In this document: positions 37,730-51,522 of the stretch, piece after piece
Position numbering within the stretch: position 1 is the stretch's first letter
Layout: each line of letters begins with the position of its first letter
Assembly (NCBI GenBank): GCA_041641305.1
Contig: JBEPYN010000001.1
Coordinates: forward strand, 787,183 to 851,182
Direction of reading: 5' to 3'
DNA length: 64,000 nucleotides
Origin: Nitrososphaerota archaeon
Lineage (GTDB): Archaea > Thermoproteota > Nitrososphaeria_A > Caldarchaeales > Caldarchaeaceae
Translations under genes and position numbers: made by a program
The notes under the pieces: generated by a model
The model's input: only the letters and a program-made list of their open reading frames with translations
Databases searched by the model: none
Told to the model about the DNA's origin: nothing

Positions 37730-37987
37730 ATGCTTCTCGCCATGAGGCTCGCCTTCGCGTTAGCGCTTCTCCCCGAGGCCAAGGGCCAGAAACCCGAGTT
37801 CGTCTTCCTCGACGAGCCGCTGGGAAGCTCCGACGAAGTAAGAAGGTCAGGCATCATCGAATACATATCCCTAGACCTCGCGAAAAAATTCAGCCAAATA
37901 TTCATCATAAGCCACGTAGGCGGCCTCGAAGAACACGTAAACCACATCATAAGACTACATGAGGGAAAAGTGGTGGAAACAGTTTAG
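37730..37987 (+). pseudogene. Orphan C-terminal fragment of Rad50/SMC-type ABC ATPase
   Basis: LAMRLAFA, Walker B FVFLDEP.GS.D, H-loop FIISH; no N-terminal part. Confidence 0.8.
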
Positions 37988-38736
37988 CACAGGCCTCGCA
38001 ACACATCCCTTATCTGATGAATTTTCTCAGGATCGGGCAAATCTTTTACAAAAATTTTCTCAACTCCATCTCGCTTCTCCGCTGCGGCCAGGTTATCCAC
38101 AATCAGAAGGGGACGTAAGAGCTTGAGTGTGCGGCGGTAGAATGTATGGCCTGTCTGGAGGTTCAGGAGTTTAGCTGATATGTGTTCTAGTGTCTTTCTG
38201 ACTTCGGGCAGGGTTATTTCAAGAGGCGGATCACTCACTAGGACTTCGCCTAATCCATTTTCTTTAGCTATTTGGCGAAAGGCCTCTACAAACTCTGCAG
38301 AAAACATGGCTTTCTCAGGCGCGCGAAACTTTTTCCATGTCGTAAAGTCGTCTAAGAGACTCGGGCCCTTCATAGCCATGTGATGCCATCCAATAGCCAG
38401 TAAGCACTCATACCGCCAAACAGTTTCTTTGATAGATTTATGCGCCGCAGAGGCTGAGAAGTATTCGTGTTTTGGAAAACTGAGTTTCTCGGGCGCGTTC
38501 CTCTGGTATTCATGCGCCGCCTTGCCATAGTCGTGGAAAATCACCGCCGTCTTCAACGCCTTCACAGCCTCAGCCTCATCTATTCCAAAGCAGTGGGCCA
38601 CGTGGGCAGCGTAGCCTCTGTCGATAAAGTGGCTGTCCAAAAACCGGAGACAGGTGATGAGATGTTCCTCTAGTGTTTCATGACGAGATGCCATAGGCTT
38701 CATTTCTATATTCTTCCTCCGAAATCCTGAAACCAA
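37984..38736 (-). CDS. cas3'': Cas3'' HD nuclease
   Basis: ETLEEH, FHDYGKA, HEYFS, WHH, VDNLAA. Confidence 0.93.
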   Translation of the reverse strand: MVSGFRRKNIEMKPMASRHETLEEHLITCLRFLDSHFIDRGYAAHVAHCFGIDEAEAVKALKTAVIFHDYGKAAHEYQRNAPEKLSFPKHEYFSASAAHKSIKETVWRYECLLAIGWHHMAMKGPSLLDDFTTWKKFRAPEKAMFSAEFVEAFRQIAKENGLGEVLVSDPPLEITLPEVRKTLEHISAKLLNLQTGHTFYRRTLKLLRPLLIVDNLAAAEKRDGVEKIFVKDLPDPEKIHQIRDVLRGLC

Positions 38737-40297
38737 CTATGTCCTTGCAGAGCATGAACAGTGAGGGGGACGGGACTCTGTTTACATCTTTGGCTCTGAG
38801 ACTTTTATCTTCAGTAAGGCCTTCTTTTTTCTGAATGATGGCTGTTGCTTGAGGAAACTTGTTTGCAAGGTGTTGGAGGTCTGTTGTGAAAGAGTTCTCT
38901 TTTTCTAATTTGTCTATGTCGTTGGCTACGTAAACGGTTGTCACAGTGTCCCTGATTAGGTTGTGGGCTTGATGTGGTGTGGACACGGGGTTAATCATCT
39001 GGTTTAGAAGAGTGTTGTTGGTGAGAAAGACTTGGTCGCCATGCACCATGTCAACAAGCTGGCTGTAGCCTATTCCTCTTTCCGGTGATGGAACACGCCA
39101 GCTTACACCGCCGTCATTCAAAGCATTTCTCAAAACTTCGTATGTTTTCTCCACCGTTTCTTCGCTGTAGGGAGCCGGTTCAGCCTTCACCACCACAATC
39201 ATACCCTCCTGCTCGTTGTCATATCGCGCAACCCTTCCCGCACGCTGCACAAGCGAACTAGCGGGAGCAAGCTCGGTTATCATCAACTCGGAGGAAATGT
39301 TAACACCCGCTTCCACAACCTGAGTCGAAACCACTACCCATTTTTTCCCGTTTTTGAGATTGTCCAAAACATTTTGACGGTCTTTCTTAGTGAGGCGTCC
39401 GTGGAGAAGTACTGCATCAGCATCGGAGAGAAGCCTGTAAAGGTGTTTAGCTTTTTCCACGGTGTTGGCCATTATGAGAACCCTATCCCATTCAGCGTCA
39501 CGCAGCCTATCCCTAACAACATCTTCCAGCGAACCTTCTTCAAGATAGGTTTCGATTTTTTTGCTTTTCATAATGTTTTCAAAGTCTTTGTCGAACATGT
39601 TTTCGCCATAAATCATTTCACGGTATTCCACCCCGAATACGCTGGCTGCTTCCCTAGCCAAGTTCCTCAGACTTTTTGACACGGTGGCGCTCATCATTGT
39701 CAAGAAACCTCCGTGACAGGCTAGCGCATAGAGAATAGAAGGTAACGTGCTGTCGTTTTCGTCAATCATAAGCTGTGGCTCGTCGAGAAATACTGCTGCT
39801 TCGAAGATTGCGCCGCGGCTTATCTCGAAGTGGCCGTATGTCCGCCAGCCGCCGTTCAGCAGAGCGCTGCAAAACATGTTTTTGATTTCATGTGGCGGCG
39901 TCTTCATCATATGGAGCTTGAAGGTTTCGTATGTTACGAAGACAATGTCCTTGTTGAGGAATGGGGACCCTGGTGCCCCCATCATCTGCTCTGCAACGAC
40001 TTCCGTCGGGTTTGTGATTCCTATTCTCTGAAGATTTTTAACCGTTGATTTGTAGGCGTCGTCTATTATGCTTCGGAGAGGCAGGACGTGAATAGACCTA
40101 AGATATTCCCGTGGTTCGATGATGGATTTTAACCCGCATGTGATAGAGAGGGCTGTTTTGCCGTAGCCAGTGGGTAGCTGAACCACGTTAAACCCCGGCC
40201 CCAGCTTCTCCAACACATGTTCAATCAAGGGCCTTTTTGCGGAATAGAAGCCCTTATCCACCAGAGTTCTGTATATTTTCGACTCAGGACAATGCAT
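38678..40297 (-). CDS. cas3': Cas3' helicase
   Basis: PTGYGKT, DEPQ, MSAT, STQVVEAGVNI, QRAGRVAR. Confidence 0.95.
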   Translation of the reverse strand: MHCPESKIYRTLVDKGFYSAKRPLIEHVLEKLGPGFNVVQLPTGYGKTALSITCGLKSIIEPREYLRSIHVLPLRSIIDDAYKSTVKNLQRIGITNPTEVVAEQMMGAPGSPFLNKDIVFVTYETFKLHMMKTPPHEIKNMFCSALLNGGWRTYGHFEISRGAIFEAAVFLDEPQLMIDENDSTLPSILYALACHGGFLTMMSATVSKSLRNLAREAASVFGVEYREMIYGENMFDKDFENIMKSKKIETYLEEGSLEDVVRDRLRDAEWDRVLIMANTVEKAKHLYRLLSDADAVLLHGRLTKKDRQNVLDNLKNGKKWVVVSTQVVEAGVNISSELMITELAPASSLVQRAGRVARYDNEQEGMIVVVKAEPAPYSEETVEKTYEVLRNALNDGGVSWRVPSPERGIGYSQLVDMVHGDQVFLTNNTLLNQMINPVSTPHQAHNLIRDTVTTVYVANDIDKLEKENSFTTDLQHLANKFPQATAIIQKKEGLTEDKSLRAKDVNRVPSPSLFMLCKDIVGFRISEEEYRNEAYGISS

Positions 40298-41465
40298 CGT
40301 AAATCTCCCGCAGCACTTCAGTCCTTCTGAAGGGACTGTTCTCGGGGCTGCTTCTCGCCAGCAGGTATACAGTTTCGTCTGCGGGCTTTACCTTGGCAGC
40401 GGCCGCGTAAAGAGCTCTACTTAGCCGGTCACAGAGAGCTGCGTCTCCAAACCTGCTTGAACAATAGTTGCTTTGTCTCCTTACCTGAGTAATCGTGCAT
40501 CTTAGAAAATCTTTGATATTTTTACTCACGGGGTCCGACAACCTCTCCACAAAAGACGCTAAGAATGAAAAATCGATTGAAAGTCTCTCGAGGAGGGAAA
40601 AGCTTTGACCTGTGTACATTATGCGGTAGAAAACATAGGGAGGTGCCTCCCGGATTGAGAGGTGTGCGGGCTTTATGCTAGCCAGCTCGAGGGCTAGCAA
40701 AAGAGAATATGCGTGGGGGAGTTCGGGAGTTACTCGGACCTTGTAGGGCAGCATCATCAGCGCCTGAAAAGCCGTGTAGTTGCCCAAAGACTGTGTGAGC
40801 TGCTGCACATAGTTCACCCAGCTATAATCTACGGTGGCTTTTGCGATGACTTTCTCGGGTATGGTTGAAAGTATTATCTCGCCGTCGGCGAAACCGGAGT
40901 AGCAGACACCGAATCCCGCCAGCACGAGCGCCACCCATCTCTCATCCATCTTAATGTCCAGCTGTGCACGAAAATCACCGAACCGTTTTCCGTATTTGTA
41001 TTTCTCAATTTTGAGAGGCTGAAAACCGGAAAAAGCTGACTTGGGCTCGCCTAAGGTGATGGTTTTTGGGGAGTAGTTGATTTTGTCCAGACTCTCGAGC
41101 CATTTGTCGGGGTTTTTCTGAAGGTCTTTGATAGCCCATGAACAAAGAGTGTCAACATATTCTACATATGTGTCGTTGACCTTGAGGTTAAGCCTCCTCA
41201 TTATTTTAGCCATGACCTGCCTGTCATTAAAGTGGGGTTTTATCGGGGGTAACTCATTTTTATTCACTAGCAACTGTTGTGCATTATGGAAAACTTGGGC
41301 CAGCGAGCCTATGGCTCCAGCTCCAGAGACCACCGCCTCGTCCTCGTAAATATCAAGTGTTGTTCCCCCCTGAGAGGGTATGGAAGCCAGGGGAGAAAGC
41401 GCTGATAACACCAGTTCGCGGGCCAGCGTGCCGTGTGGAAGGAGCTTGATGTTGATTTTCACCAT
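40284..41465 (-). CDS. cas8a: Type I-A large subunit Cas8a (Csa4-like)
   Basis: Position between cas5 and cas3; size; no strong motif. Confidence 0.7.
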   Translation of the reverse strand: MVKINIKLLPHGTLARELVLSALSPLASIPSQGGTTLDIYEDEAVVSGAGAIGSLAQVFHNAQQLLVNKNELPPIKPHFNDRQVMAKIMRRLNLKVNDTYVEYVDTLCSWAIKDLQKNPDKWLESLDKINYSPKTITLGEPKSAFSGFQPLKIEKYKYGKRFGDFRAQLDIKMDERWVALVLAGFGVCYSGFADGEIILSTIPEKVIAKATVDYSWVNYVQQLTQSLGNYTAFQALMMLPYKVRVTPELPHAYSLLLALELASIKPAHLSIREAPPYVFYRIMYTGQSFSLLERLSIDFSFLASFVERLSDPVSKNIKDFLRCTITQVRRQSNYCSSRFGDAALCDRLSRALYAAAAKVKPADETVYLLARSSPENSPFRRTEVLREIYDALS

Positions 41466-42217
41466 GGGATGAGCTCCTCGTCGCCGACTCTGTAAACTAT
41501 TCCATCCATGAGGCTGACATGCAGCGGCGAAACTCTCTTTTTCTCATCGTCATAGGGAACAATCAGGTTTACCGTGGGTTTACCGAGGTATTCGCCGATA
41601 GATGTGTTTCGCCAATCGACCACATTTGCGACCAAATAGCTTCCTTTCACCGATGACTGCATGTAAGAGGGGAAATAATACACTGTTTGTGCAGTTTTCT
41701 GATTTAGCACAGCAACGTCACCAATCGTCACTTTGTCCACGGAAACTATGCTCTCCCTCGCCCCAAGCCTCGTAATCGACCACGCTGCCTCGAGCAACAT
41801 CTCTTCCCAGCCTACACCGAAAAACTTTCGGGCATCCTGCTCCTCAAACAGGTAAACAATTTTTACACGGTCATCTGCAGAGCTGATCCCACGGTAGACC
41901 TTGCTCACTGCTGCCGCATCAGTCCTTATCTGTTTTTCGTCAACGTCGTATGAAACAATTTTGCTCAAGTCGTTGTACTCGATTAATGGAAGATTTTGAG
42001 ATAGGTATATTCCTTTGAACAGTGTTCTGATTTTTTCGGCTGAGCTGTTTGAATCACTGTTCTCAGCCCAGTTGTTTTTTAGTGCGATTGGCTGTGCAAG
42101 GGCGCCGATTAAGGTTGTTGGGGGTATTGTTTTGAGGGCGGGGCGGCTTTTGGTGAAGGCGTGGTAGTTGATGTAGAGGCCCCAGTGAGGCGTTGCCTCG
42201 ACTTTGAGAAATTTCAT
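41459..42217 (-). CDS. cas5: Type I-A Cas5
   Basis: PPTTLIGALA; AAWSITRLGARESIVSV. Confidence 0.93.
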   Translation of the reverse strand: MKFLKVEATPHWGLYINYHAFTKSRPALKTIPPTTLIGALAQPIALKNNWAENSDSNSSAEKIRTLFKGIYLSQNLPLIEYNDLSKIVSYDVDEKQIRTDAAAVSKVYRGISSADDRVKIVYLFEEQDARKFFGVGWEEMLLEAAWSITRLGARESIVSVDKVTIGDVAVLNQKTAQTVYYFPSYMQSSVKGSYLVANVVDWRNTSIGEYLGKPTVNLIVPYDDEKKRVSPLHVSLMDGIVYRVGDEELIPW

Positions 42218-43308
42218 GTTCTGCCCGCTAGAATTTCCTCGAGAACAAGGGTGAACAATTGCTCGACAGAGTCCGCCTTCATCACGCCGTCGGGAACCGG
42301 TTTCTCCTTGCTGTAGGCAAAGATTTTCATCTCCTCTTTTTTGCCGAATCTCTGCAGCATCTCCTTCATGGAATCTGCTCGTTTAACAGTATTCTCAACA
42401 AAGTCGGGAAACTGAGGCGGGCTGATGACGAAAGGCCTCTGACGTGAAACAACGGCCCCGAGGCTCAGCACATCCTCTATTGGGAGGAAACGGCTTCTCT
42501 TGGCCCCGAAGCTGTGGCCTGTGAAGAGCCGCGCCGCTGCCAGTAGAGCAATCTTCATCCTATCCAGACGGTCTGTGACGGCATCCTCAACCTTGACCAT
42601 GCTTGTCCTCCCAATAGAATCGAGGTTGATGTTGAAGGTGAAGCCGTAGACTGCGGAGGCGAGCTCTACATAGTAGATGGCCTGTCCCTGCCTCTCTTTC
42701 ACAGTTTTCGCTTGATTCTTCTCTTCACCCCCCTCCTGCGACTCCTCCTGTTTCACCGTCTCGCTTGCAACATACCTGACGTGAAACTGACTCTCCATAG
42801 CCGTCGAATCGAGAGCGTCGAATACAGGAACAGCGTATCCTATCTGGAAACATGAGGTCCGTTTAACGGGAACTCCTTCAGCTATCAAGAAGCCGCCAAT
42901 GTCGGCGACGACGCTCAGCTTGATCGCCGTCTTTTCAACAAGGTGCTTCTGCTCAACCGTTTTCTCTTCTTTTTTTCCGCCTTTTGTTTTGATGATTGAG
43001 GATAGTTCATCGGGCATGTGTTTGAGGTCGCCGAATTTTATGAATTCACCTCTCTTCGACCATTCGTCGAGAGGTGCTTTTTCACCATAGAGGTTGATGG
43101 CCTCTTCTACTATTGCTTGTTGGTAGGCGTGTCCGAGGCTTTCGCCGCTTATGGCAGGTACGTACAGTAGTTTAAAGCCATCCGGTGTCGGGACAACAAT
43201 GGGGGCTTTCCTGTGTTTGGAGAGGTTGCCGATGCTCTCAACCATGTTAAGGGCCTCTACGTTGCATAAAAACCGGACACCCATCGAGAGAAACATCTCA
43301 TTCCTCAC
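42214..43308 (-). CDS. cas7: Cas7/Csa2
   Basis: EALNMVESIGN..HR, VPAISGES, DIGGFL, VKRTS, GAKRSRFLP. Confidence 0.95.
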   Translation of the reverse strand: MRNEMFLSMGVRFLCNVEALNMVESIGNLSKHRKAPIVVPTPDGFKLLYVPAISGESLGHAYQQAIVEEAINLYGEKAPLDEWSKRGEFIKFGDLKHMPDELSSIIKTKGGKKEEKTVEQKHLVEKTAIKLSVVADIGGFLIAEGVPVKRTSCFQIGYAVPVFDALDSTAMESQFHVRYVASETVKQEESQEGGEEKNQAKTVKERQGQAIYYVELASAVYGFTFNINLDSIGRTSMVKVEDAVTDRLDRMKIALLAAARLFTGHSFGAKRSRFLPIEDVLSLGAVVSRQRPFVISPPQFPDFVENTVKRADSMKEMLQRFGKKEEMKIFAYSKEKPVPDGVMKADSVEQLFTLVLEEILAGRT

Positions 43309-43633
43309 CTCTTTTTTCGGGAAATGCGAGCGCCAATGCTGCTAGAACCTTGGCTGCGCTTAGGTCTTCCTTGATCAGTTCGACGACCTTTCTCACATGG
43401 GCTTCGGAGGGGATGTGGACTTTTTCACCGGCGTCTGCTGCGCTTCTAGCTTCTCTCAAAGCCTCCATAACAGCTACCTCGGCGATTCTGTGGTTAAAGG
43501 CGTTGGCCAACCGATCTACGTATCCATACTTGCTTTCTATCACGAAGTAGCGAAAGGTTCGGGCCACATCCATCAACGAACTCCATTCTTCATCCGAGAA
43601 ACGCGAATCCTTTGCCAAAACCTCTGTTGGCAC
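43298..43633 (-). CDS. csa5: Small subunit Csa5 (Cas11)
   Basis: YGYVDRLANA..EALR; precedes cas7. Confidence 0.85.
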   Translation of the reverse strand: MPTEVLAKDSRFSDEEWSSLMDVARTFRYFVIESKYGYVDRLANAFNHRIAEVAVMEALREARSAADAGEKVHIPSEAHVRKVVELIKEDLSAAKVLAALALAFPEKRGEE

Positions 43634-43729: not shown

Positions 43730-44410
43730 TTGATGAGAAAAACGATAATGGTGACACTTGGTTACACTGAATGGCCTGTTGTGTCGTCGCTGGTTAAGCA
43801 TGGGCTTGAGCCGGGGGACCGAATCATCACAATTGTTCCATCAAAAAGTGATGCAAGGTCGAGCGCGGCTATGCAGGAGATTCGCAATTTTTTGTCCAAG
43901 TTTTCGCCGGGTGTCGCGTTGGAGGTTTTGACCGTGGATGTGATGAAGTTTGAACAGGCTGTGGCCGCGGTTCTGAAACGCTTATTCAATGAGAAGAGAG
44001 AGGGCCGGAACGTTATCGTCAACTTAAGCGGCGGCATGAGGATATTGATTCTCGAGACCTACACAGCTCTCGTGTTGTCGGGGGCCGGTGCCGCAGTCTC
44101 CGAGATAATCACGGAGGATAAGCAGGAACTTGTGCTGCCAAGCCTCTCCACTGTAGACCTCTTCAGTCTGTTGAAAAAGTCTGATGTCAGGATACTTGAG
44201 GCTGCTAAGAACTCCGAAAGCGTTGTGGCCCTTGCGAAAACTGCGCGTCTTCCTCTTGCTACAGCCTATAGGCGTGTGGTTGCGTTGGAGAGGATTGGGC
44301 TTTTGACGACCGTTAAACGCAATAGAGTGAGGACGGTTTCACTGACGGCTTTGGGCCGTGTTGTTCTCGAAGTTTTTCCTGAGAGACGGGAGGGTGTGGT
44401 GAGTTGGTGA
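43730..44410 (+). CDS. csa3: CARF-wHTH regulator Csa3
   Basis: TLG..NLSGGMRIL CARF motifs plus C-terminal HTH. Confidence 0.92.
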   Translation: MMRKTIMVTLGYTEWPVVSSLVKHGLEPGDRIITIVPSKSDARSSAAMQEIRNFLSKFSPGVALEVLTVDVMKFEQAVAAVLKRLFNEKREGRNVIVNLSGGMRILILETYTALVLSGAGAAVSEIITEDKQELVLPSLSTVDLFSLLKKSDVRILEAAKNSESVVALAKTARLPLATAYRRVVALERIGLLTTVKRNRVRTVSLTALGRVVLEVFPERREGVVSW

Positions 44411-45285
44411 CGGGGTATGTTCTGAGGCTTGTGTCTGCACAGCCTATTCCGATGGATTTTTTCTCGGGTTTCGCGGTCAGAGGCCTGTTCTTCAAGTTTC
44501 TGAAAAGGTTTGACAGCGTGTTGGCTGATGAGGTTCATGACGCGAGGGCTCTGAGTCCCTACAGCGTCTCGCCTGTTGAGACGTTGGCGGGTCGTGGAAT
44601 TTTCTACGGTGTTGTTCAGCCCGGCTTTGTTTTTCAGATGAGGATGAATGCGTTGAACGGTGTGGTGAACGATGCTTTGATGAAGAGTTTGCTCTCGGTT
44701 GATGCGTCGCGTCTGGAGCTGAATGGTGTGGAGGTTTGGCTGAGGGAGATTGCTGTGAAGAATTGGGAGCCTCTGGAGAGGGTTGATGTCTATGAGGGGT
44801 TGAGGTTCTCTGTTCGGTTCAGGTCTCCGACTTTTTTCCGGAGCACTCAGAAAGGCCCTACTTTTTTGATGAGGCTTTTGCAGAGAAGGCTCAGAAGGCC
44901 TGTTAGGCCTGTTTACCGATACATGATTCTGCCTGATCCTTACTTGTTTTTCCGCACTCTTGCAAGGCTGTATAGACAGTTTGGGGAGCCGAGTTTTCCA
45001 TACAAGTCGTATAGTGAGTGGCTTCTGGAGGGTGGCGTGGCCCTGGAGACATACAGCGGGCTGAGGGTCTCGAAAGTCTATGATGACCGTGGCAGATGGT
45101 CCCGTGGCTTTGTGGGCCACGCGGTGTTCACTGTTCCACGTAATCTTTTTGATAGACGTATGGCGAAAATCACGGTTAATTTATTGGAGTTTGCGAGGTT
45201 CAGCAACGTTGGGGGGAATAGGACAGCGGGTTTCGGTGTAGTCGATTACCGTGTTTATCCGCCTAAGGAGGGTGATGATAAGTGA
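44404..45285 (+). CDS. cas6: Cas6 endoribonuclease
   Basis: PYSVSP, FRSPTFF, Gly-rich loop VGGNRTAGFG. Confidence 0.93.
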   Translation: MVTGYVLRLVSAQPIPMDFFSGFAVRGLFFKFLKRFDSVLADEVHDARALSPYSVSPVETLAGRGIFYGVVQPGFVFQMRMNALNGVVNDALMKSLLSVDASRLELNGVEVWLREIAVKNWEPLERVDVYEGLRFSVRFRSPTFFRSTQKGPTFLMRLLQRRLRRPVRPVYRYMILPDPYLFFRTLARLYRQFGEPSFPYKSYSEWLLEGGVALETYSGLRVSKVYDDRGRWSRGFVGHAVFTVPRNLFDRRMAKITVNLLEFARFSNVGGNRTAGFGVVDYRVYPPKEGDDK

Positions 45286-46244
45286 GTGAGCTTGTGATAG
45301 ATAGACCTGGGACGTATCTTGGGGTGAGGAAGGGGTTGTTTGTTGTCAGGACAAGGGACGGTGGGTGTTCCGAGTTTTCGCCTGTGGAGCTTTCGCATAT
45401 TTCTATTAGGTGTAGGGGTGTGGGTGTTTCGGTTGATGCTTTGAGGCTCGCGTGCAGGTTTGGTATTGAGGTTTCTGTTTATGCGCGTGGGCGGCCTGTT
45501 GGGAAGCTTGTTGGCACGTTTCTAGGAGGTGGTGCTGTGACGAAGCGTGCTCAGCTGGAGGCTTGGGGGACTGAGAGAGGGTTGGCTGTCGCAAGGGAGA
45601 TTGTCCACGCTAAGCTCCATAATCAGAGGCTTGTGGTTAGGCAGAGGGCTAAGGAGTATCTTGCCAAAGGCCATGCTGCTGGCCAGATGTTGATGAAGCT
45701 GGAGCAGGAGATTGGTGATTGCATGAACCAATTGGCTAATGCCGGGGATGTTGATTCTGTTCGGGCTTATGAGGCGCGTGGCGCCGCGAGCTACTGGAAA
45801 GCGGTGTCTCTGCTTCTTCCGGATGAGCTTGGGTTTACTGGGCGGGTTACATGGTCTCCGCAGGATCCTTTCAACAAGGGTTTGAACATTGGCTACGGTG
45901 TTCTGAGGTCGCGGGTTTGGTCTGCTGTGATAGGTGCTAACCTCGACCCTTTCATAGGTTTTCTGCATCAGCCGCGTGGCAGGCACATGTGTCTTGTTAG
46001 TGACTTGATGGAGGAGTTTCGGCCTGGTGTTGTTGACCGTCCGTTGATTGGCTTGGCTGTTGAGAAGCCTGCTTCGCTGCTGGATGAGCGGTTGCTTGAG
46101 AAGAGTGTGGTTACGGTGGTGGCTCAGGCTTTTGCGCGGGGTGATAGGTTGTTTGAGCGTGCTGTTGTGGAGCAGGCTAGGCGGCTGGCATCTTTTCTCC
46201 GTGGGGAGGTGGATAGGTATGTGGGGTTTAGGATGAGGTGGTGA
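45282..46244 (+). CDS. cas1: Cas1
   Basis: EARGA..YW, DPFN..LN.GY, LDPFIGFLH, DLMEEFRP. Confidence 0.96.
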   Translation: MSELVIDRPGTYLGVRKGLFVVRTRDGGCSEFSPVELSHISIRCRGVGVSVDALRLACRFGIEVSVYARGRPVGKLVGTFLGGGAVTKRAQLEAWGTERGLAVAREIVHAKLHNQRLVVRQRAKEYLAKGHAAGQMLMKLEQEIGDCMNQLANAGDVDSVRAYEARGAASYWKAVSLLLPDELGFTGRVTWSPQDPFNKGLNIGYGVLRSRVWSAVIGANLDPFIGFLHQPRGRHMCLVSDLMEEFRPGVVDRPLIGLAVEKPASLLDERLLEKSVVTVVAQAFARGDRLFERAVVEQARRLASFLRGEVDRYVGFRMRW

Positions 46245-46247
46245 ACG

Positions 46248-46547
46248 GTGTCTACGAAGCCTACACATATTCTCGTGATTTATGATGTGTCGGATGATTC
46301 GCGGCGTATGGAGCTTGCGGCTGCTTTGAAGAGGCTTGGGTTGACACGTGTTCAGCGCAGCGCCTTTGTGGGGCCCTGCACGGTTGCTTTGATAAGTGAT
46401 GTGAAGAATGTTTCCCGCCGCATCATCGATTTTTCGACGGATAATGTGCAGATTTATCCTTTGACGCCTGCTTCTTACCGGTTGAGGATTGTTGTTGGGC
46501 GGGAGTTTCGGGAGGAGGGTGATGTTGCGGGTGGGTATGTGGTTTGA
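46248..46547 (+). CDS. cas2: Cas2
   Basis: VIYDVSDD..RVQRSAF. Confidence 0.95.
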   Translation: MSTKPTHILVIYDVSDDSRRMELAAALKRLGLTRVQRSAFVGPCTVALISDVKNVSRRIIDFSTDNVQIYPLTPASYRLRIVVGREFREEGDVAGGYVV

Positions 46548-47140
46548 GTGAGGAGGCGGGTCTTTTTCCTGTTGGGTTTGTGAAGAATTTCTATTTTTGT
46601 CAGCAGATTCCTTACATCAATCTTGTGTTGCATGTTTTTGAGCCTGAGACGGAGAGTATGGTTTATGGACGGGAGCGGCATCTGCGTTTTCATGCGCAGT
46701 ATCTTCCGCGTGGGATTAGGGCTGTGGATGTTGAGACGGATGTGCAGCTTGTTGGGTATCGTCTTGGGTTGTCGGGTGTTTTGGATGCTTTGGTTCACGC
46801 TGTTTTCGGTGAGCTTGTTCCATGTGAGTTGAAGGTTTCGGGCCTTGGCGGGGATGGGCCGCCGTTGAAGGATTTGGTTCAGTTGACCGCTTATGGGATG
46901 CTTGTTGAGGAGGTTTATGGAAAGACTGTGAAGAGGGGTGTGCTTTACTACGCCGAGGATGGTGGCAAGCATGTTGTTTATTTCAGTGATTCGTTGAGGG
47001 GGCTTGTGCGGAGGGCTGTTGAGGCGATGAGGCGGATGGTTGATTCTGAGAGGCCGCCCAAGGGTAGGAGCTTGGATAAATGCGCTGGATGCTGGTATAG
47101 CAGGGTTTGCTGGGGCGGGCCGGTTCACAAACTGCCTTGA
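46544..47140 (+). CDS. cas4: Cas4
   Basis: FC, G...H, GVLD..ELK, QLTAY, CAGCWYSRVC. Confidence 0.94.
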   Translation: MSEEAGLFPVGFVKNFYFCQQIPYINLVLHVFEPETESMVYGRERHLRFHAQYLPRGIRAVDVETDVQLVGYRLGLSGVLDALVHAVFGELVPCELKVSGLGGDGPPLKDLVQLTAYGMLVEEVYGKTVKRGVLYYAEDGGKHVVYFSDSLRGLVRRAVEAMRRMVDSERPPKGRSLDKCAGCWYSRVCWGGPVHKLP

Positions 47141-47336
47141 GGCCTGCGGAGGCTTATGCTTTTCGGCGGAAATAGATATATGTTAGGGGTTTTGTAGCGT
47201 CTTTCGTGAATTGTTTATAAGTTTTTAGGGGGGATTTGGTGGGATAAACCTAAATAGAACCCCTAAACAATTATAGACCGAAAACAAGCGGCGACAAAAT
47301 GCCGCAAAGATTCGAAAATTCAAGAAAAAACACACA
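47141..47336 (+). promoter_or_regulatory. CRISPR leader
   Basis: AT-rich non-coding region with TTTATAA box and TTTAGGGG/CCCCTAAA inverted repeat; degenerate repeats lie at the opposite end of the array. Confidence 0.85.
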
Positions 47337-50091
47337 CTGATCCCGCAAGAGGGAATTGAAAGCTACATCAAATACTGGCCATACAGGCATCCATACAGCC
47401 ATCCCCTGATCCCGCAAGAGGGAATTGAAAGAACACAACTAAGCCGACAAGCACATACCACAACTTAATCCCCGGCGCCTGATCCCGCAAGAGGGAATTG
47501 AAAGTGATAACTTTTGACATTGTAACGTTGAATTTTCCCATCACTACGGAGCTGATCCCGCAAGAGGGAATTGAAAGAAATTCTGCCCACGCTGTAAGCA
47601 ATATATCGCCTAAACCCTCTGATCCCGCAAGAGGGAATTGAAAGATAGTAGTTTGAATAAGATAGCAGAGAAGATATTTATAGAGTGCTGATCCCGCAAG
47701 AGGGAATTGAAAGACTATTGATACGACTGTTGACAGCGTAATAAGCGAGGCTGATCCCGCAAGAGGGAATTGAAAGACCACCACAATCAGCCAATTCTTC
47801 TTCAGCCATTCAACCCAATCTGATCCCGCAAGAGGGAATTGAAAGTTCCGGCACAGGACTATAATTCGCAGTAATAGTAGCAATTTCCCTGATCCCGCAA
47901 GAGGGAATTGAAAGTCCGAAGTCTCCAAGTGGCTAAACTATGTTCCAGTGCTCCAACTGATCCCGCAAGAGGGAATTGAAAGTCGATGGATAGCAGCTTA
48001 TTCGCCACCTTTGTTATACGTATGTCCACTGATCCCGCAAGAGGGAATTGAAAGACTATAACCATAAATGGGATAGACATAAACGTAGGCGTCTATCAAC
48101 TGATCCCGCAAGAGGGAATTGAAAGATCTACTAGGTTTTGTAGCTCTGATGGTAGTTCCGGTATTGCCTGATCCCGCAAGAGGGAATTGAAAGCAACCTA
48201 GTCTCAACCTGATGGCCTCAACCTAGTCTCAACCTGACTGATCCCGCAAGAGGGAATTGAAAGAGCGACCCCATACATATGCTTCTCCGCGAAATAGGTA
48301 AAGAAGTCCTCTGATCCCGCAAGAGGGAATTGAAAGCTTGTTATGTGTTGTTAGGTTAATATATTTAAGAGGGGTGAGAAAAAAACTGATCCCGCAAGAG
48401 GGAATTGAAAGTTATACAGCAGTGTCAGGGCCGTATCTACGTATGGCGTCTTCTGGGACGGGTCCCAGGGGCTCTGATCCCGCAAGAGGGAATTGAAAGT
48501 TATACAGCAGAGTAGATAACAACTATATCAAATACTGGCCATACACTGATCCCGCAAGAGGGAATTGAAAGTGTATCCGCCCAGACTGGGTGGCAGTATG
48601 TCCTGGGTCAGCCCCCTGATCCCGCAAGAGGGAATTGAAAGACTAAAACGGCCTGGGCCAGGTTGTCATATATTCTAAGTAGGGTCTGATCCCGCAAGAG
48701 GGAATTGAAAGCATTCATCACTGCAGACCTGGGCCCAAGAACCATCTTTATCCCTGATCCCGCAAGAGGGAATTGAAAGAGTTCACCCGTCCGTCCTCTA
48801 CGTTCGGTCGTCCTATCAGCTGATCCCGCAAGAGGGAATTGAAAGTAAAAGATGAGGGCGATTACTTGCCTGTGTTCAGGCATTTCTGATCCCGCAAGAG
48901 GGAATTGAAAGCTTTTTTGTAGCTCTTGTTCCAGCTGTTCTCTGGTTATATACCTGATCCCGCAAGAGGGAATTGAAAGAAGAATTACGTGCACTCAGCA
49001 AAGTCAGCTATGTAGCAGATGAGGACTGATCCCGCAAGAGGGAATTGAAAGTGACATAGCCGCAGGTGTTGCAACGTTTGCATATGAAAAACTGATCCCG
49101 CAAGAGGGAATTGAAAGGGCGCGCATACATACATACGTATGCCCATCCGACCGACCCAATCATCTGATCCCGCAAGAGGGAATTGAAAGTATATCCTCGG
49201 GAATGCCTACAGCCACCTCAATTAAGTTCACTGATCCCGCAAGAGGGAATTGAAAGTATGTTGTCCGGACGGGCTACGGGACAGCGTTTTATCAAACACT
49301 GATCCCGCAAGAGGGAATTGAAAGTATAACATTAAGAGACGTTTTCCCGAGTTTCCGTTGGATGTCTGATCCCGCAAGAGGGAATTGAAAGAATGTTGTC
49401 AATATAGTCGCCCATGCCAATCCAATACCTACTGATCCCGCAAGAGGGAATTGAAAGAACGCTTTGATTTTGGAAGACGTGCCTATACAGGCTCGGAACA
49501 CTGATCCCGCAAGAGGGAATTGAAAGGAGCCTCATCCACAATCAGAAGCGTAGCCGAATAGCCTACAAGCCCCTCTGATCCTGCAAGAGGGAATTGAAAG
49601 TGGGTTTGGTGAAGTGGCATGAGTAAATCGCCGGCCGAAGACGGTTTTAAGCAGCCTAAAGGGGTGGGAATCGTTAAGATTACCGAGGAAGATGTTCGTG
49701 TGGCTGAGCCAGCGGAGTATCCTGCCTTGGTTGGCATGAGCTTCTTCTACAGAGGTAGGCTTCTGATGGTTTCTGACTACGGCTATGTAGAGTCTAAAGG
49801 GGAGTTCGACGCTGCGGTGGAGTGGGCGAAACACCACTATAGGTTTTTGGTTGACCGACATAATAAGCGGGCGGGAGTTTCTAAACCTGCTGAGATACTA
49901 TGGTTAGAGGGGGAGAAAGATATCTGATCCCGCAAGAGGGAATTGAAAGTCGCGTGGATAGAAAAAGCAACGCCTGAGGAGATTGAGGCGAGGCTCTGAT
50001 CCCGCAAGAGGGATTTGAAAGGCTGGTGGCTAGACGGATGGCGATGAACTCCTGTCGGAGCCCCACTGATCTCGCGAGAGGGGACTGTATG
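47337..50091 (+). CRISPR. CRISPR array, 26-nt repeat CTGATCCCGCAAGAGGGAATTGAAAG, 36 repeats / 35 spacers
   Basis: Counted by eye; spacers mostly ~39-49 nt, one 62 nt, one 323 nt; variant repeats at 49575 and 49996, degenerate terminal repeat at 50066. Confidence 0.98.
49619..49927 (+). CDS. 102-aa ORF embedded in the CRISPR array
   Basis: GGTGA RBS at 49608, ATG 49619, stop supplied by the TGA of the next repeat. Confidence 0.55.
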   Translation: MSKSPAEDGFKQPKGVGIVKITEEDVRVAEPAEYPALVGMSFFYRGRLLMVSDYGYVESKGEFDAAVEWAKHHYRFLVDRHNKRAGVSKPAEILWLEGEKDI

Positions 50092-50106: not shown

Positions 50107-51522
50107 TTAGAAGAGTTCTTGTAGGGTGTATTGTCTTGGGTCTGTTATTTTTCCCGTCAACGCTGTGGCCGCTGCGACGAGTGGGCTTGCGAGATGTGTG
50201 CGGCCTCCGACGCCTTGTCTGTTCTCGAAGTTGCGGTTGCTTGTCGAGAGACATCTCTCGCCAGGTCTCAGCCTATCTTCGTTCATCGCGATGCACATGC
50301 TGCATCCGCTGTTCCGCCACTCAAACCCAGCCTCCAAAAATATCCTATGCAGACCCATGCGCTCCGCCCTCCGCTTCGTCAACTGCGAACCAGGCACAAC
50401 AAGAACCCTCACACCATAAGCCTTTCTCCTACCCTTCACAAGCCTCGCCACATCAATCAAATCACTCAGCCGAGCGTTGGTGCATGAGCCGATAAACACC
50501 GTATCCACCCTGATGTCGGAAACCTTCATCCCAGGCTCAAGACCCATATACTGAAGAGCCCGCTCAACCGCTTTTCTATCGGCGGGGTCGTCAAAGTCAT
50601 CGGGAGAGGGCACGTTCTCCGTCACACCCACCGTCATGGCGGGGTTCGTTCCCCACGTCACCTGCGGCTCAATACGAGACACATCAAACGTGTGAACCGT
50701 GTCATATTTTGCGCCAGGGTCAGTCTTCAGCGTCCGCCAATACTCAACAGCCTCATCCCATTCACGGCCTTTCGGGCTATAGGGCGCGTCCTTGAGAAAG
50801 TTGAAAACTTTTTCATCGGGTTCTATGATGGCTGTCCGTGCACCGCCCTCGATGGACATGTTTGTCAACGTCATCCTCTCTTCGACGCCGATGTTCTTGA
50901 CGTAGTCGCCTGTGAACTCGACGACGTGTCCAATGCATCCACCCGTGCCAAGGGTTCTGATGATGTAGAGGATGACGTCCTTGGCTGTTACGCCTTCTCC
51001 ATCCTTCCCCGTGAGCCTGATGTTCATCTGCTTCGGCTTCTTGAGCCAGAGCGTCTGCGTCGCGAGAACATGCTCTCCCTCGCTTGTTCCAATACCGAAA
51101 GCAAGCGCTCCAAAAGCCCCATGCGTCGATGTGTGGCTGTCTCCGCAGACAAGCGTTATGCCTGGAATAGTGAGGCCCAGCTCAGGCCCGATCACGTGGA
51201 CGATGCCCTGAAAAGGGCTGAAGTAGTCGAACAAAGTAATGCCGAATTCTCTTGCGTTGCGGCTGAGGGCCTGCATCTGCGCAGCCGACATAGGCTCTCT
51301 GACGGGCTCGAGCCTATCACCTGTCGGAACGTTGTGGTCCATCACCGCGAAAGTCAGGTCAGGCCTACGCACTCTACGGCCCGCGGCCCTCAACCCCTCG
51401 AAGGCAAGCGGCGAAGTAACCTCATGCGTCAGATGCCTATCGATGTAGAGCAGCGTCTGCCCATCCTCCCTCTCCGCAAGAGCATGACTGTTCCAAATCT
51501 TCTCAAACACCGTGTAGCCCAT
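50107..51522 (-). CDS. leuC: 3-isopropylmalate dehydratase large subunit
   Basis: HEVTSP, DHNVPT, CGDSHTSTHGAFG, IGSCTN, CSMC, STSNRNF. Confidence 0.97.
   Translation of the reverse strand: MGYTVFEKIWNSHALAEREDGQTLLYIDRHLTHEVTSPLAFEGLRAAGRRVRRPDLTFAVMDHNVPTGDRLEPVREPMSAAQMQALSRNAREFGITLFDYFSPFQGIVHVIGPELGLTIPGITLVCGDSHTSTHGAFGALAFGIGTSEGEHVLATQTLWLKKPKQMNIRLTGKDGEGVTAKDVILYIIRTLGTGGCIGHVVEFTGDYVKNIGVEERMTLTNMSIEGGARTAIIEPDEKVFNFLKDAPYSPKGREWDEAVEYWRTLKTDPGAKYDTVHTFDVSRIEPQVTWGTNPAMTVGVTENVPSPDDFDDPADRKAVERALQYMGLEPGMKVSDIRVDTVFIGSCTNARLSDLIDVARLVKGRRKAYGVRVLVVPGSQLTKRRAERMGLHRIFLEAGFEWRNSGCSMCIAMNEDRLRPGERCLSTSNRNFENRQGVGGRTHLASPLVAAATALTGKITDPRQYTLQELF

Follow-up and report, generated by a model that had tools for sequence, protein, structure and literature searches.

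Gene-sized inserts in the spacer slots of CRISPR arrays have seldom been reported, and we found two archaeal cases in the literature, each from a crenarchaeal host with a type I-A system. The first, SiL-E1, is an element of about 2 kb with five open reading frames (ORFs) in CRISPR_2 of Sulfolobus islandicus LAL14/1, which lies between identical repeats, leaves no unaccounted bases, and has its source in pING1-like conjugative plasmids (82% identity); its authors (Jaubert et al. 2013) considered both faulty processing of the prespacer and recombination with pre-existing spacers, without deciding between the two (PMC3718332). The second is an 899-bp fragment of a pNOB8-like plasmid between two repeats of locus F of S. 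solfataricus P2 (Garrett et al. 2015 review, PMC4390879). Here, we describe a 323-nt spacer, spacer 33 of a type I-A CRISPR array, in a 64,000-nt stretch of the genome of a Nitrososphaerota archaeon (the whole stretch is called the window), which was compared with three other public assemblies (L005, L006, and L007). We consider it probable that a foreign protein-coding fragment of 323 bp was put into the spacer slot as an oversized pseudo-spacer, its source being most likely a virus or plasmid of this archaeon that has yet to be sampled. The oversized pseudo-spacer is a rare but already described kind of insert; what is particular to this example is that it comes from a thermophile-type archaeon outside the Sulfolobales, is old, is common to several strains, and is a sense fragment with an intact translation start.

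The remaining spacers of the array (34 of 35) measured 37 to 62 nt, and at about 7.5 times the normal 43 nt the insert was far longer; it fitted the register of the array, and each of its two borders fell exactly at a repeat. This agrees with the sequence-only reading of this DNA, which had placed a 323-nt spacer between two full repeats. The same 323 nt with the same junctions were present in L005, L006, and L007, where a perfect canonical repeat stood on both sides. Counted from the trailer end, the insert was the third spacer in all three, with the same two spacers and then the aconitase-family gene after it. Misassembly, which the sequence-only reading had named as the way in which the insert could prove spurious, is therefore excluded: three independent assemblies carry junctions identical to those of the window. 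A C>T variant in the repeat upstream of the insert, which had been taken as supporting evidence, turned out to be coincidental. A 45-nt spacer (beginning TTTCAGGAAGG) and a canonical repeat intervene between the C>T repeat and the insert in L005 (881-977), L006 (3886-3982), and L007 (428-524), so the window genome has lost one unit, and the C>T change has nothing to do with the insert. It was also observed that the leader-side spacers were wholly different between the window and L006, and that L005 was without two units that L007 has; the population is turning over array units actively.

The length of 323 nt is almost exactly what four repeats and five spacers of average size would give together (4 x 26 + 5 x 43.8), and Garrett et al. 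noted a like register for the 899-bp case. It could accordingly be proposed that the insert is not a spacer at all, but a misassembly, a run of five spacers with four decayed repeats, an internal leader of fused arrays, or a small transposable element. We find this scarcely credible, given the identical junctions in four independent assemblies and a continuous coding frame that runs through the whole insert. Each form of the proposal was also tried directly. The best local score of the repeat against the insert was 6, below the shuffle mean of 7.8, and the insert scored 13 against the leader, below the shuffle 95th percentile of 15, and both decayed repeats and an internal leader were rejected. 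Terminal inverted repeats and a second genome copy, which would have pointed to a miniature inverted-repeat transposable element or an insertion sequence element, were both lacking. A structured RNA was likewise rejected (fold z-score of -0.39 compared to shuffled sequences, and no Rfam match).

Spacers of this size were rare wherever arrays were compared. Across the three arrays of this genome, only spacer 33 exceeded 62 nt, the overall range being otherwise 35 to 62 nt. No spacer longer than 62 nt besides the insert was present in the L005, L006, and L007 copies of the array, and of the 297 spacers that make up ten arrays from five genomes of the same genus, none was longer than 59 nt or gene-bearing. 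This corresponds to one such event per ~420 spacers, a rarity that is expected if the insert was an accident.

Within the insert, an ORF starts 18 nt from the border, stays open to the TGA of the following repeat, and is sense to the leader-driven transcript (Table 1). Both the start with its ribosome-binding site and the direction had been claimed in the sequence-only reading, and both were borne out. The GGTGA motif stands at the spacing preferred by the host, where GGTGA occurred before 5.5% of gene starts compared to 1.6% in the background (3.5-fold enriched) and most commonly 6 to 7 nt from the ATG. The TGA inside this motif closes the reading frame of the ORF two codons ahead of the ATG; the ORF start can therefore not lie further upstream. 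With 787 long ORFs of this genome as the source of the codon table, we obtained a score of 0.252 bits per codon for the ORF, which equals the host gene median (host mean of 0.254, standard deviation of 0.11). Random open frames of the same composition had a mean of -0.107 (standard deviation of 0.083), 0 of 5000 reached the score of the ORF, and the sense frame scored far above the other five frames of the insert. The GC content at the three codon positions was 0.59/0.37/0.54 for the ORF compared to 0.58/0.41/0.60 for the host, and one unbroken coding frame ran through the insert. Judged by its sequence, the insert is genuine coding DNA, composed of the last codons of one gene, a ribosome-binding site between genes, and codons 1 to 102 of the gene after it. 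The first nine bases (TGG GTT TGG) and the TGA that follows would then be the end of the preceding gene in a tightly packed operon of the source. The C terminus of the ORF product is set by the repeat, and the protein may be truncated. An open frame of 109 codons on the opposite strand was rejected as a gene, since its codon score was typical of the antisense of real genes and its end in the adjoining repeat and spacer varies between assemblies (109 versus 96 amino acids).

The homology check that the sequence-only reading had proposed was carried out by database searches, and no relative of the protein or of the insert was found. A word-index search of 5.8 billion proteins gave no homologs of the ORF product (P0001), and an exhaustive HMMER search of 1.84 billion representative proteins gave no true match; as the latter covered proteins of all lengths, it argues against a known longer parent protein. 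The sole HMMER match, P0002 (E = 2e-5), was dismissed because its score was the sum of nine tandem repeats contributing about 3 bits each and because BLASTP did not recover it. P0002 is itself a 2624-aa protein with at least nine near-identical tandem repeats of 107 residues and no Pfam match. No homolog of P0001 was present in 75 species-representative genomes of the class, and the weak tblastn matches obtained there and among species-representative contigs were regarded as noise. Nothing significant was found for P0001 in Pfam, PHROGs, NCBIfam, PADLOC, PDB, or the ESM Atlas, and it matched no known anti-CRISPR (Acr), Aca, or defense family, with Acr families being thinly covered by the libraries used. 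At the DNA level, the insert was single copy in this genome and shared only chance-level 20-mers with 40 relatives and 400 genomes of the phylum; these matches were discarded as noise, the best of them lying inside ordinary genes and not in arrays. Furthermore, credible self-targets were lacking among the spacers of this genome's arrays and of L005 and L006, and none of these spacers matched the insert. As an ORFan with host-like translation signals, it would fit a viral or plasmid gene from an element of the host that has yet to be sampled.

The sequence-only reading had mentioned a rare gene-sized Cas1 integration as one way in which the insert could have arisen, and this is the explanation that we favor. 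The borders are exactly those that integration with repeat duplication leaves, the machinery is adjacent, with cas1, cas2, cas4, and cas6 directly upstream of the array, and length control is loose; the insert is single copy, and no decayed repeat, leader-like sequence, or terminal inverted repeats were found in it. An over-long capture has likewise been put forward for the two published archaeal cases, for SiL-E1 beside recombination. Under this reading, Cas1-Cas2, possibly with Cas4, would have inserted an untrimmed prespacer, one not cut down to ~43 bp, at the repeat that was leader-proximal at the time, and duplication of that repeat would have yielded the exact, intact repeats on both sides. 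The capture was presumably early, since the insert is the third-oldest spacer still present, and the unit would later have been inherited and exchanged among strains within the conserved trailer end. In repeats with the terminal sequence AUUGAAAG, the established Cas6 cut site lies 8 nt ahead of the repeat end. The fragment would be transcribed in the precursor CRISPR RNA (pre-crRNA) from the leader promoter and cut by Cas6 in both flanking repeats, and the predicted product is an RNA of 349 nt, made up of an 8-nt handle, the 323 nt of the insert, and 18 nt of the next repeat. Trimming from the 3' end could still give an ordinary CRISPR RNA (crRNA) guided by the first ~40 nt. The array RNA would also carry the ribosome-binding site, the ATG, the 102 codons, and the repeat-supplied stop, and any translation of it would be a by-product.

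Several observations weigh against such a capture. The searches of phage records, IMG/VR, metagenome contigs, and species-representative genome contigs returned neither the source of the insert nor relatives of P0001, so that the foreign origin, any protospacer-adjacent motif, and the gene ends stay putative. Cas1-Cas2 is not known to integrate a 323-bp prespacer in vivo. The host-like codon usage would also fit the chromosome of a related archaeon as the source. Finally, by our own estimate, a random fragment would have a chance of a few percent of both starting 18 nt before a gene start and lying in the sense direction, so that a non-random origin, or selection acting on expression, is conceivable.

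The flanks of the insert were identical to those of the window in two of the three other assemblies, while in the third, L006, identity came to only ~95% across cas1-cas4, the leader, and the aconitase-family gene. Between 49501 and 50250 (~750 nt), however, the window and L006 had no mismatch, the missing unit apart, and divergence resumed beyond this tract, from about 50400. Besides the insert, the mismatch-free tract takes in three spacers, the degenerate repeats, and the trailer, and it reaches ~140 nt into the aconitase-family gene (its 3' end); the alignment suggests that the old array end was recently recombined or transferred between diverged lineages. As the tract is identical in its non-coding parts too, the identity of the insert is no evidence of selection on the ORF. 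The four copies of the insert were 100% identical, and the ratio of nonsynonymous to synonymous substitution rates (dN/dS) was therefore not computable.

Recombination could also have created the insert itself, through a double crossover or gene conversion with a mobile element in which two spacers of the array lie a few hundred bases apart, so that a spacer-repeat-spacer segment was replaced by continuous DNA of the element, which would leave a long pseudo-spacer with an intact repeat at either end. Jaubert et al. proposed such recombination as one of two scenarios for SiL-E1 (PMC3718332). This array does recombine, as seen from the unit deleted in the window genome compared to the other assemblies and from the ~750-nt mismatch-free tract common to a lineage that is ~95% identical elsewhere, and the overlap between spacers 1 and 18 indicates repeated acquisition from one element. 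Even so, we regard this origin, though a fair rival, as unlikely. It requires two prior spacers in the right order and orientation in addition to a crossover on arms of only ~40 bp, and no array in the four assemblies or in the same-genus genomes has spacers equal to the ends of the insert.

Whichever of these origins applies, the ORF could be a functional gene borne by the array, with a 102-aa product made from the pre-crRNA or from the 349-nt RNA and useful to the host as a block to the virus it came from, a regulator, a toxin, or an anti-CRISPR protein. This was the central proposal of the sequence-only reading, and parts of it stand: the Shine-Dalgarno-like motif lies at the optimal host spacing before an ATG, the codons are host-like, the ORF is sense, and the stop codon would be kept after Cas6 cutting, since the TGA occupies bases 2 to 4 of repeat 34, before the predicted cut site. 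In addition, the unit was kept in all four assemblies even though neighboring units were lost, and the gene callers of a public collection had annotated the ORF as a gene. Some translation is plausible, as the predicted 349-nt RNA holds a complete cistron. For a functional product, on the other hand, we found no support. The protein has no homolog in the databases searched, no family, and no sign of purifying selection, there is no variation in which selection could be measured, its C terminus is dictated by the repeat, and the C>T variant is coincidental. Retention of the unit is uninformative on selection, because the identical copies lie in a tract that also covers non-coding DNA and because trailer-end spacers are usually conserved anyway. 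Within the ORF, a hairpin with a T5 run behind it (49821-49849) may terminate part of the transcription. The structure models were of low confidence: the predicted local distance difference test score of the AlphaFold2 single-sequence model was 49.6, too low for a fold search, and the ESM Atlas model, at 0.64, had no fold match. Among the 297 spacers of relatives, no other was gene-bearing. Taken together, we judge a functional gene in the array to be improbable, and place the expression of a functional protein from it between improbable and very improbable.

In its most far-reaching form, the proposal makes the array an expression platform. Cas6 would release a 349-nt mini-mRNA, with the 8-nt handle, a 26-nt leader containing GGUGA, the 102 codons, and the stop from the repeat, and the captured N-terminal part of a viral protein would be made along with array transcription and protect the host, e.g., by poisoning assembly or by excluding the virus. 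We consider this very improbable, and the intact, correctly oriented translation start, with its chance of a few percent, is the only hint in its direction. If it were true, CRISPR memory would gain a second layer, one built on protein. Were the ORF shown to be both translated and useful, CRISPR arrays would have a function not seen before; as the evidence stands, the insert is a curiosity. The insert also offers a natural test of whether ribosomes use pre-crRNA or Cas6-processed RNA and of whether a working crRNA can be made from a very long spacer.

The CRISPR-Cas locus around the insert is a complete type I-A locus, with all of the listed type I-A genes and the ATTGAAAG repeat end present in the window (Table 1). 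For several of the interference genes, among them cas3'' HD, csx9, and csa5, the NCBIfam scores were below the curated cut-off. The genes directly 5' of the array matched Csa3_N, CRISPR_Cas6, Cas_Cas1 (4e-57), CRISPR_Cas2, and Cas_Cas4 in Pfam, with cas6 at 44404-45285. The repeat of the array is CTGATCCCGCAAGAGGGAATTGAAAG, with the final two copies degenerate, as at a trailer end, and its end ATTGAAAG is the usual archaeal 8-nt crRNA handle; from this repeat end and the degenerate last repeats it follows that the array reads on the plus strand, leader first. The two other arrays of the genome have the same repeat, and their leaders also contain the TATA-like box. The last ~140 nt of the leader are kept before all three arrays.

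Table 1. Features of the type I-A CRISPR-Cas locus and of the oversized spacer, with positions in the window.
Feature	Positions	Strand	Basis
Interference genes cas3'' (HD), cas3' helicase, cas8a2/csx9-like, cas5a, cas7/csa2, and csa5	37984..43633	-	NCBIfam matches
csa3-cas6-cas1-cas2-cas4 (regulator, crRNA endonuclease, and adaptation module), directly 5' of the array	43730..47140	+	Pfam
Leader, 196 nt, with TATA-like box TTTATAAG	47141..47336	+	85-87% identity to the genome's two other leaders
CRISPR array, 36 repeats of 26 nt and 35 spacers	47337..50091	+	Repeat/spacer parsing
Antisense 109-aa open frame, not a gene	49532..49861	-	Codon score of -0.09
Repeat 33, C>T at position 8, stem kept as a G-U pair	49575..49600	+	Adjoins the insert only in the window's genome
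Spacer 33, oversized (pseudo-)spacer, probable piece of foreign protein-coding DNA	49601..49923	+	Array parsing, codon score, single copy
GGTGA Shine-Dalgarno-like motif, 6 nt before the ATG	49608..49612	+	16S 3' end ...GGATCACCTCC
102-codon ORF (P0001; 11.6 kDa, isoelectric point of 5.9), stop from repeat 34	49619..49927	+	ORF translation, codon score
Repeat 34, perfect copy; its bases 2-4 (TGA) end the ORF	49924..49949	+	Sequence
Aconitase-family gene bordering the array trailer	50107..51522	-	Pfam Aconitase, 1e-170

Some further features of the arrays were noted. Spacers 1 (47363-47405) and 18 (48500-48545) overlap by 23 nt with one mismatch, and spacer 18 has its first 11 nt, TTATACAGCAG, in common with spacer 17 (48412-48473; at 62 nt, the second longest), after which the two diverge. 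These overlaps suggest repeated or primed acquisition from one region of related elements. Spacer 14 (48194-48237) contains an internal direct duplication, with CAACCTAGTCTCAACCTGA present twice, and probably derives from a repetitive target. The second array of the genome (49 repeats on the minus strand of contig C1; 256220-259612 in reverse-strand coordinates) follows a leader with 87% identity to that of the window. Its first 37 repeats are of a variant, CCCGTAAG compared to CCCGCAAG with the G changed, and its later repeats are canonical; the variant repeat spread from the leader end.

Compared with the described systems, the insert most resembles SiL-E1, in that long gene-bearing DNA occupies a slot of a crenarchaeal-type array between identical repeats, is followed by ordinary units, and is singular in its lineage. 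It differs in that it measures 323 nt, has a single ORF beginning just within the border, matches no source, and is common to several strains, whereas SiL-E1 is strain-specific. With the locus F fragment, it shares an oversized insert between two repeats, a type I-A host, and a size near a multiple of the repeat-spacer unit. The locus F fragment partly matches a plasmid and was not described with a sense gene start and a ribosome-binding site, while such a start is present here.

Ordinary type I-A acquisition, in which Cas1-Cas2-Cas4 integrates at the leader-proximal end with repeat duplication, is matched by the architecture of the locus, the exact borders, and an orientation consistent with the array. 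The size, ~7.5 times the normal 43 nt, is not matched, and no ruler or trimming is evident. Gene-sized inserts are relevant to the question of how strict Cas1-Cas2 and Cas4 are in measuring prespacers. The CreTA/CreR mini-arrays, which regulate toxin or cas genes, are similar in presenting a repeat-flanked sequence for a use other than ordinary immunity, and this was the idea behind the interpretation in the sequence-only reading. They have degenerate repeats and a short pseudo-spacer that partly matches a promoter of the same genome, in contrast to the canonical repeats and the coding insert without a genome match found here. Casposons differ in that casposon genes and terminal inverted repeats are absent from this insert and the duplicated "target" is a CRISPR repeat. 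Casposon integration, in which a Cas1-family integrase inserts kilobase-scale DNA with target-site duplication, is nevertheless a conceptual precedent for long insertions, and gene-sized inserts such as this one bear on the evolutionary link of the CRISPR integrases to the casposases, which insert long DNA.

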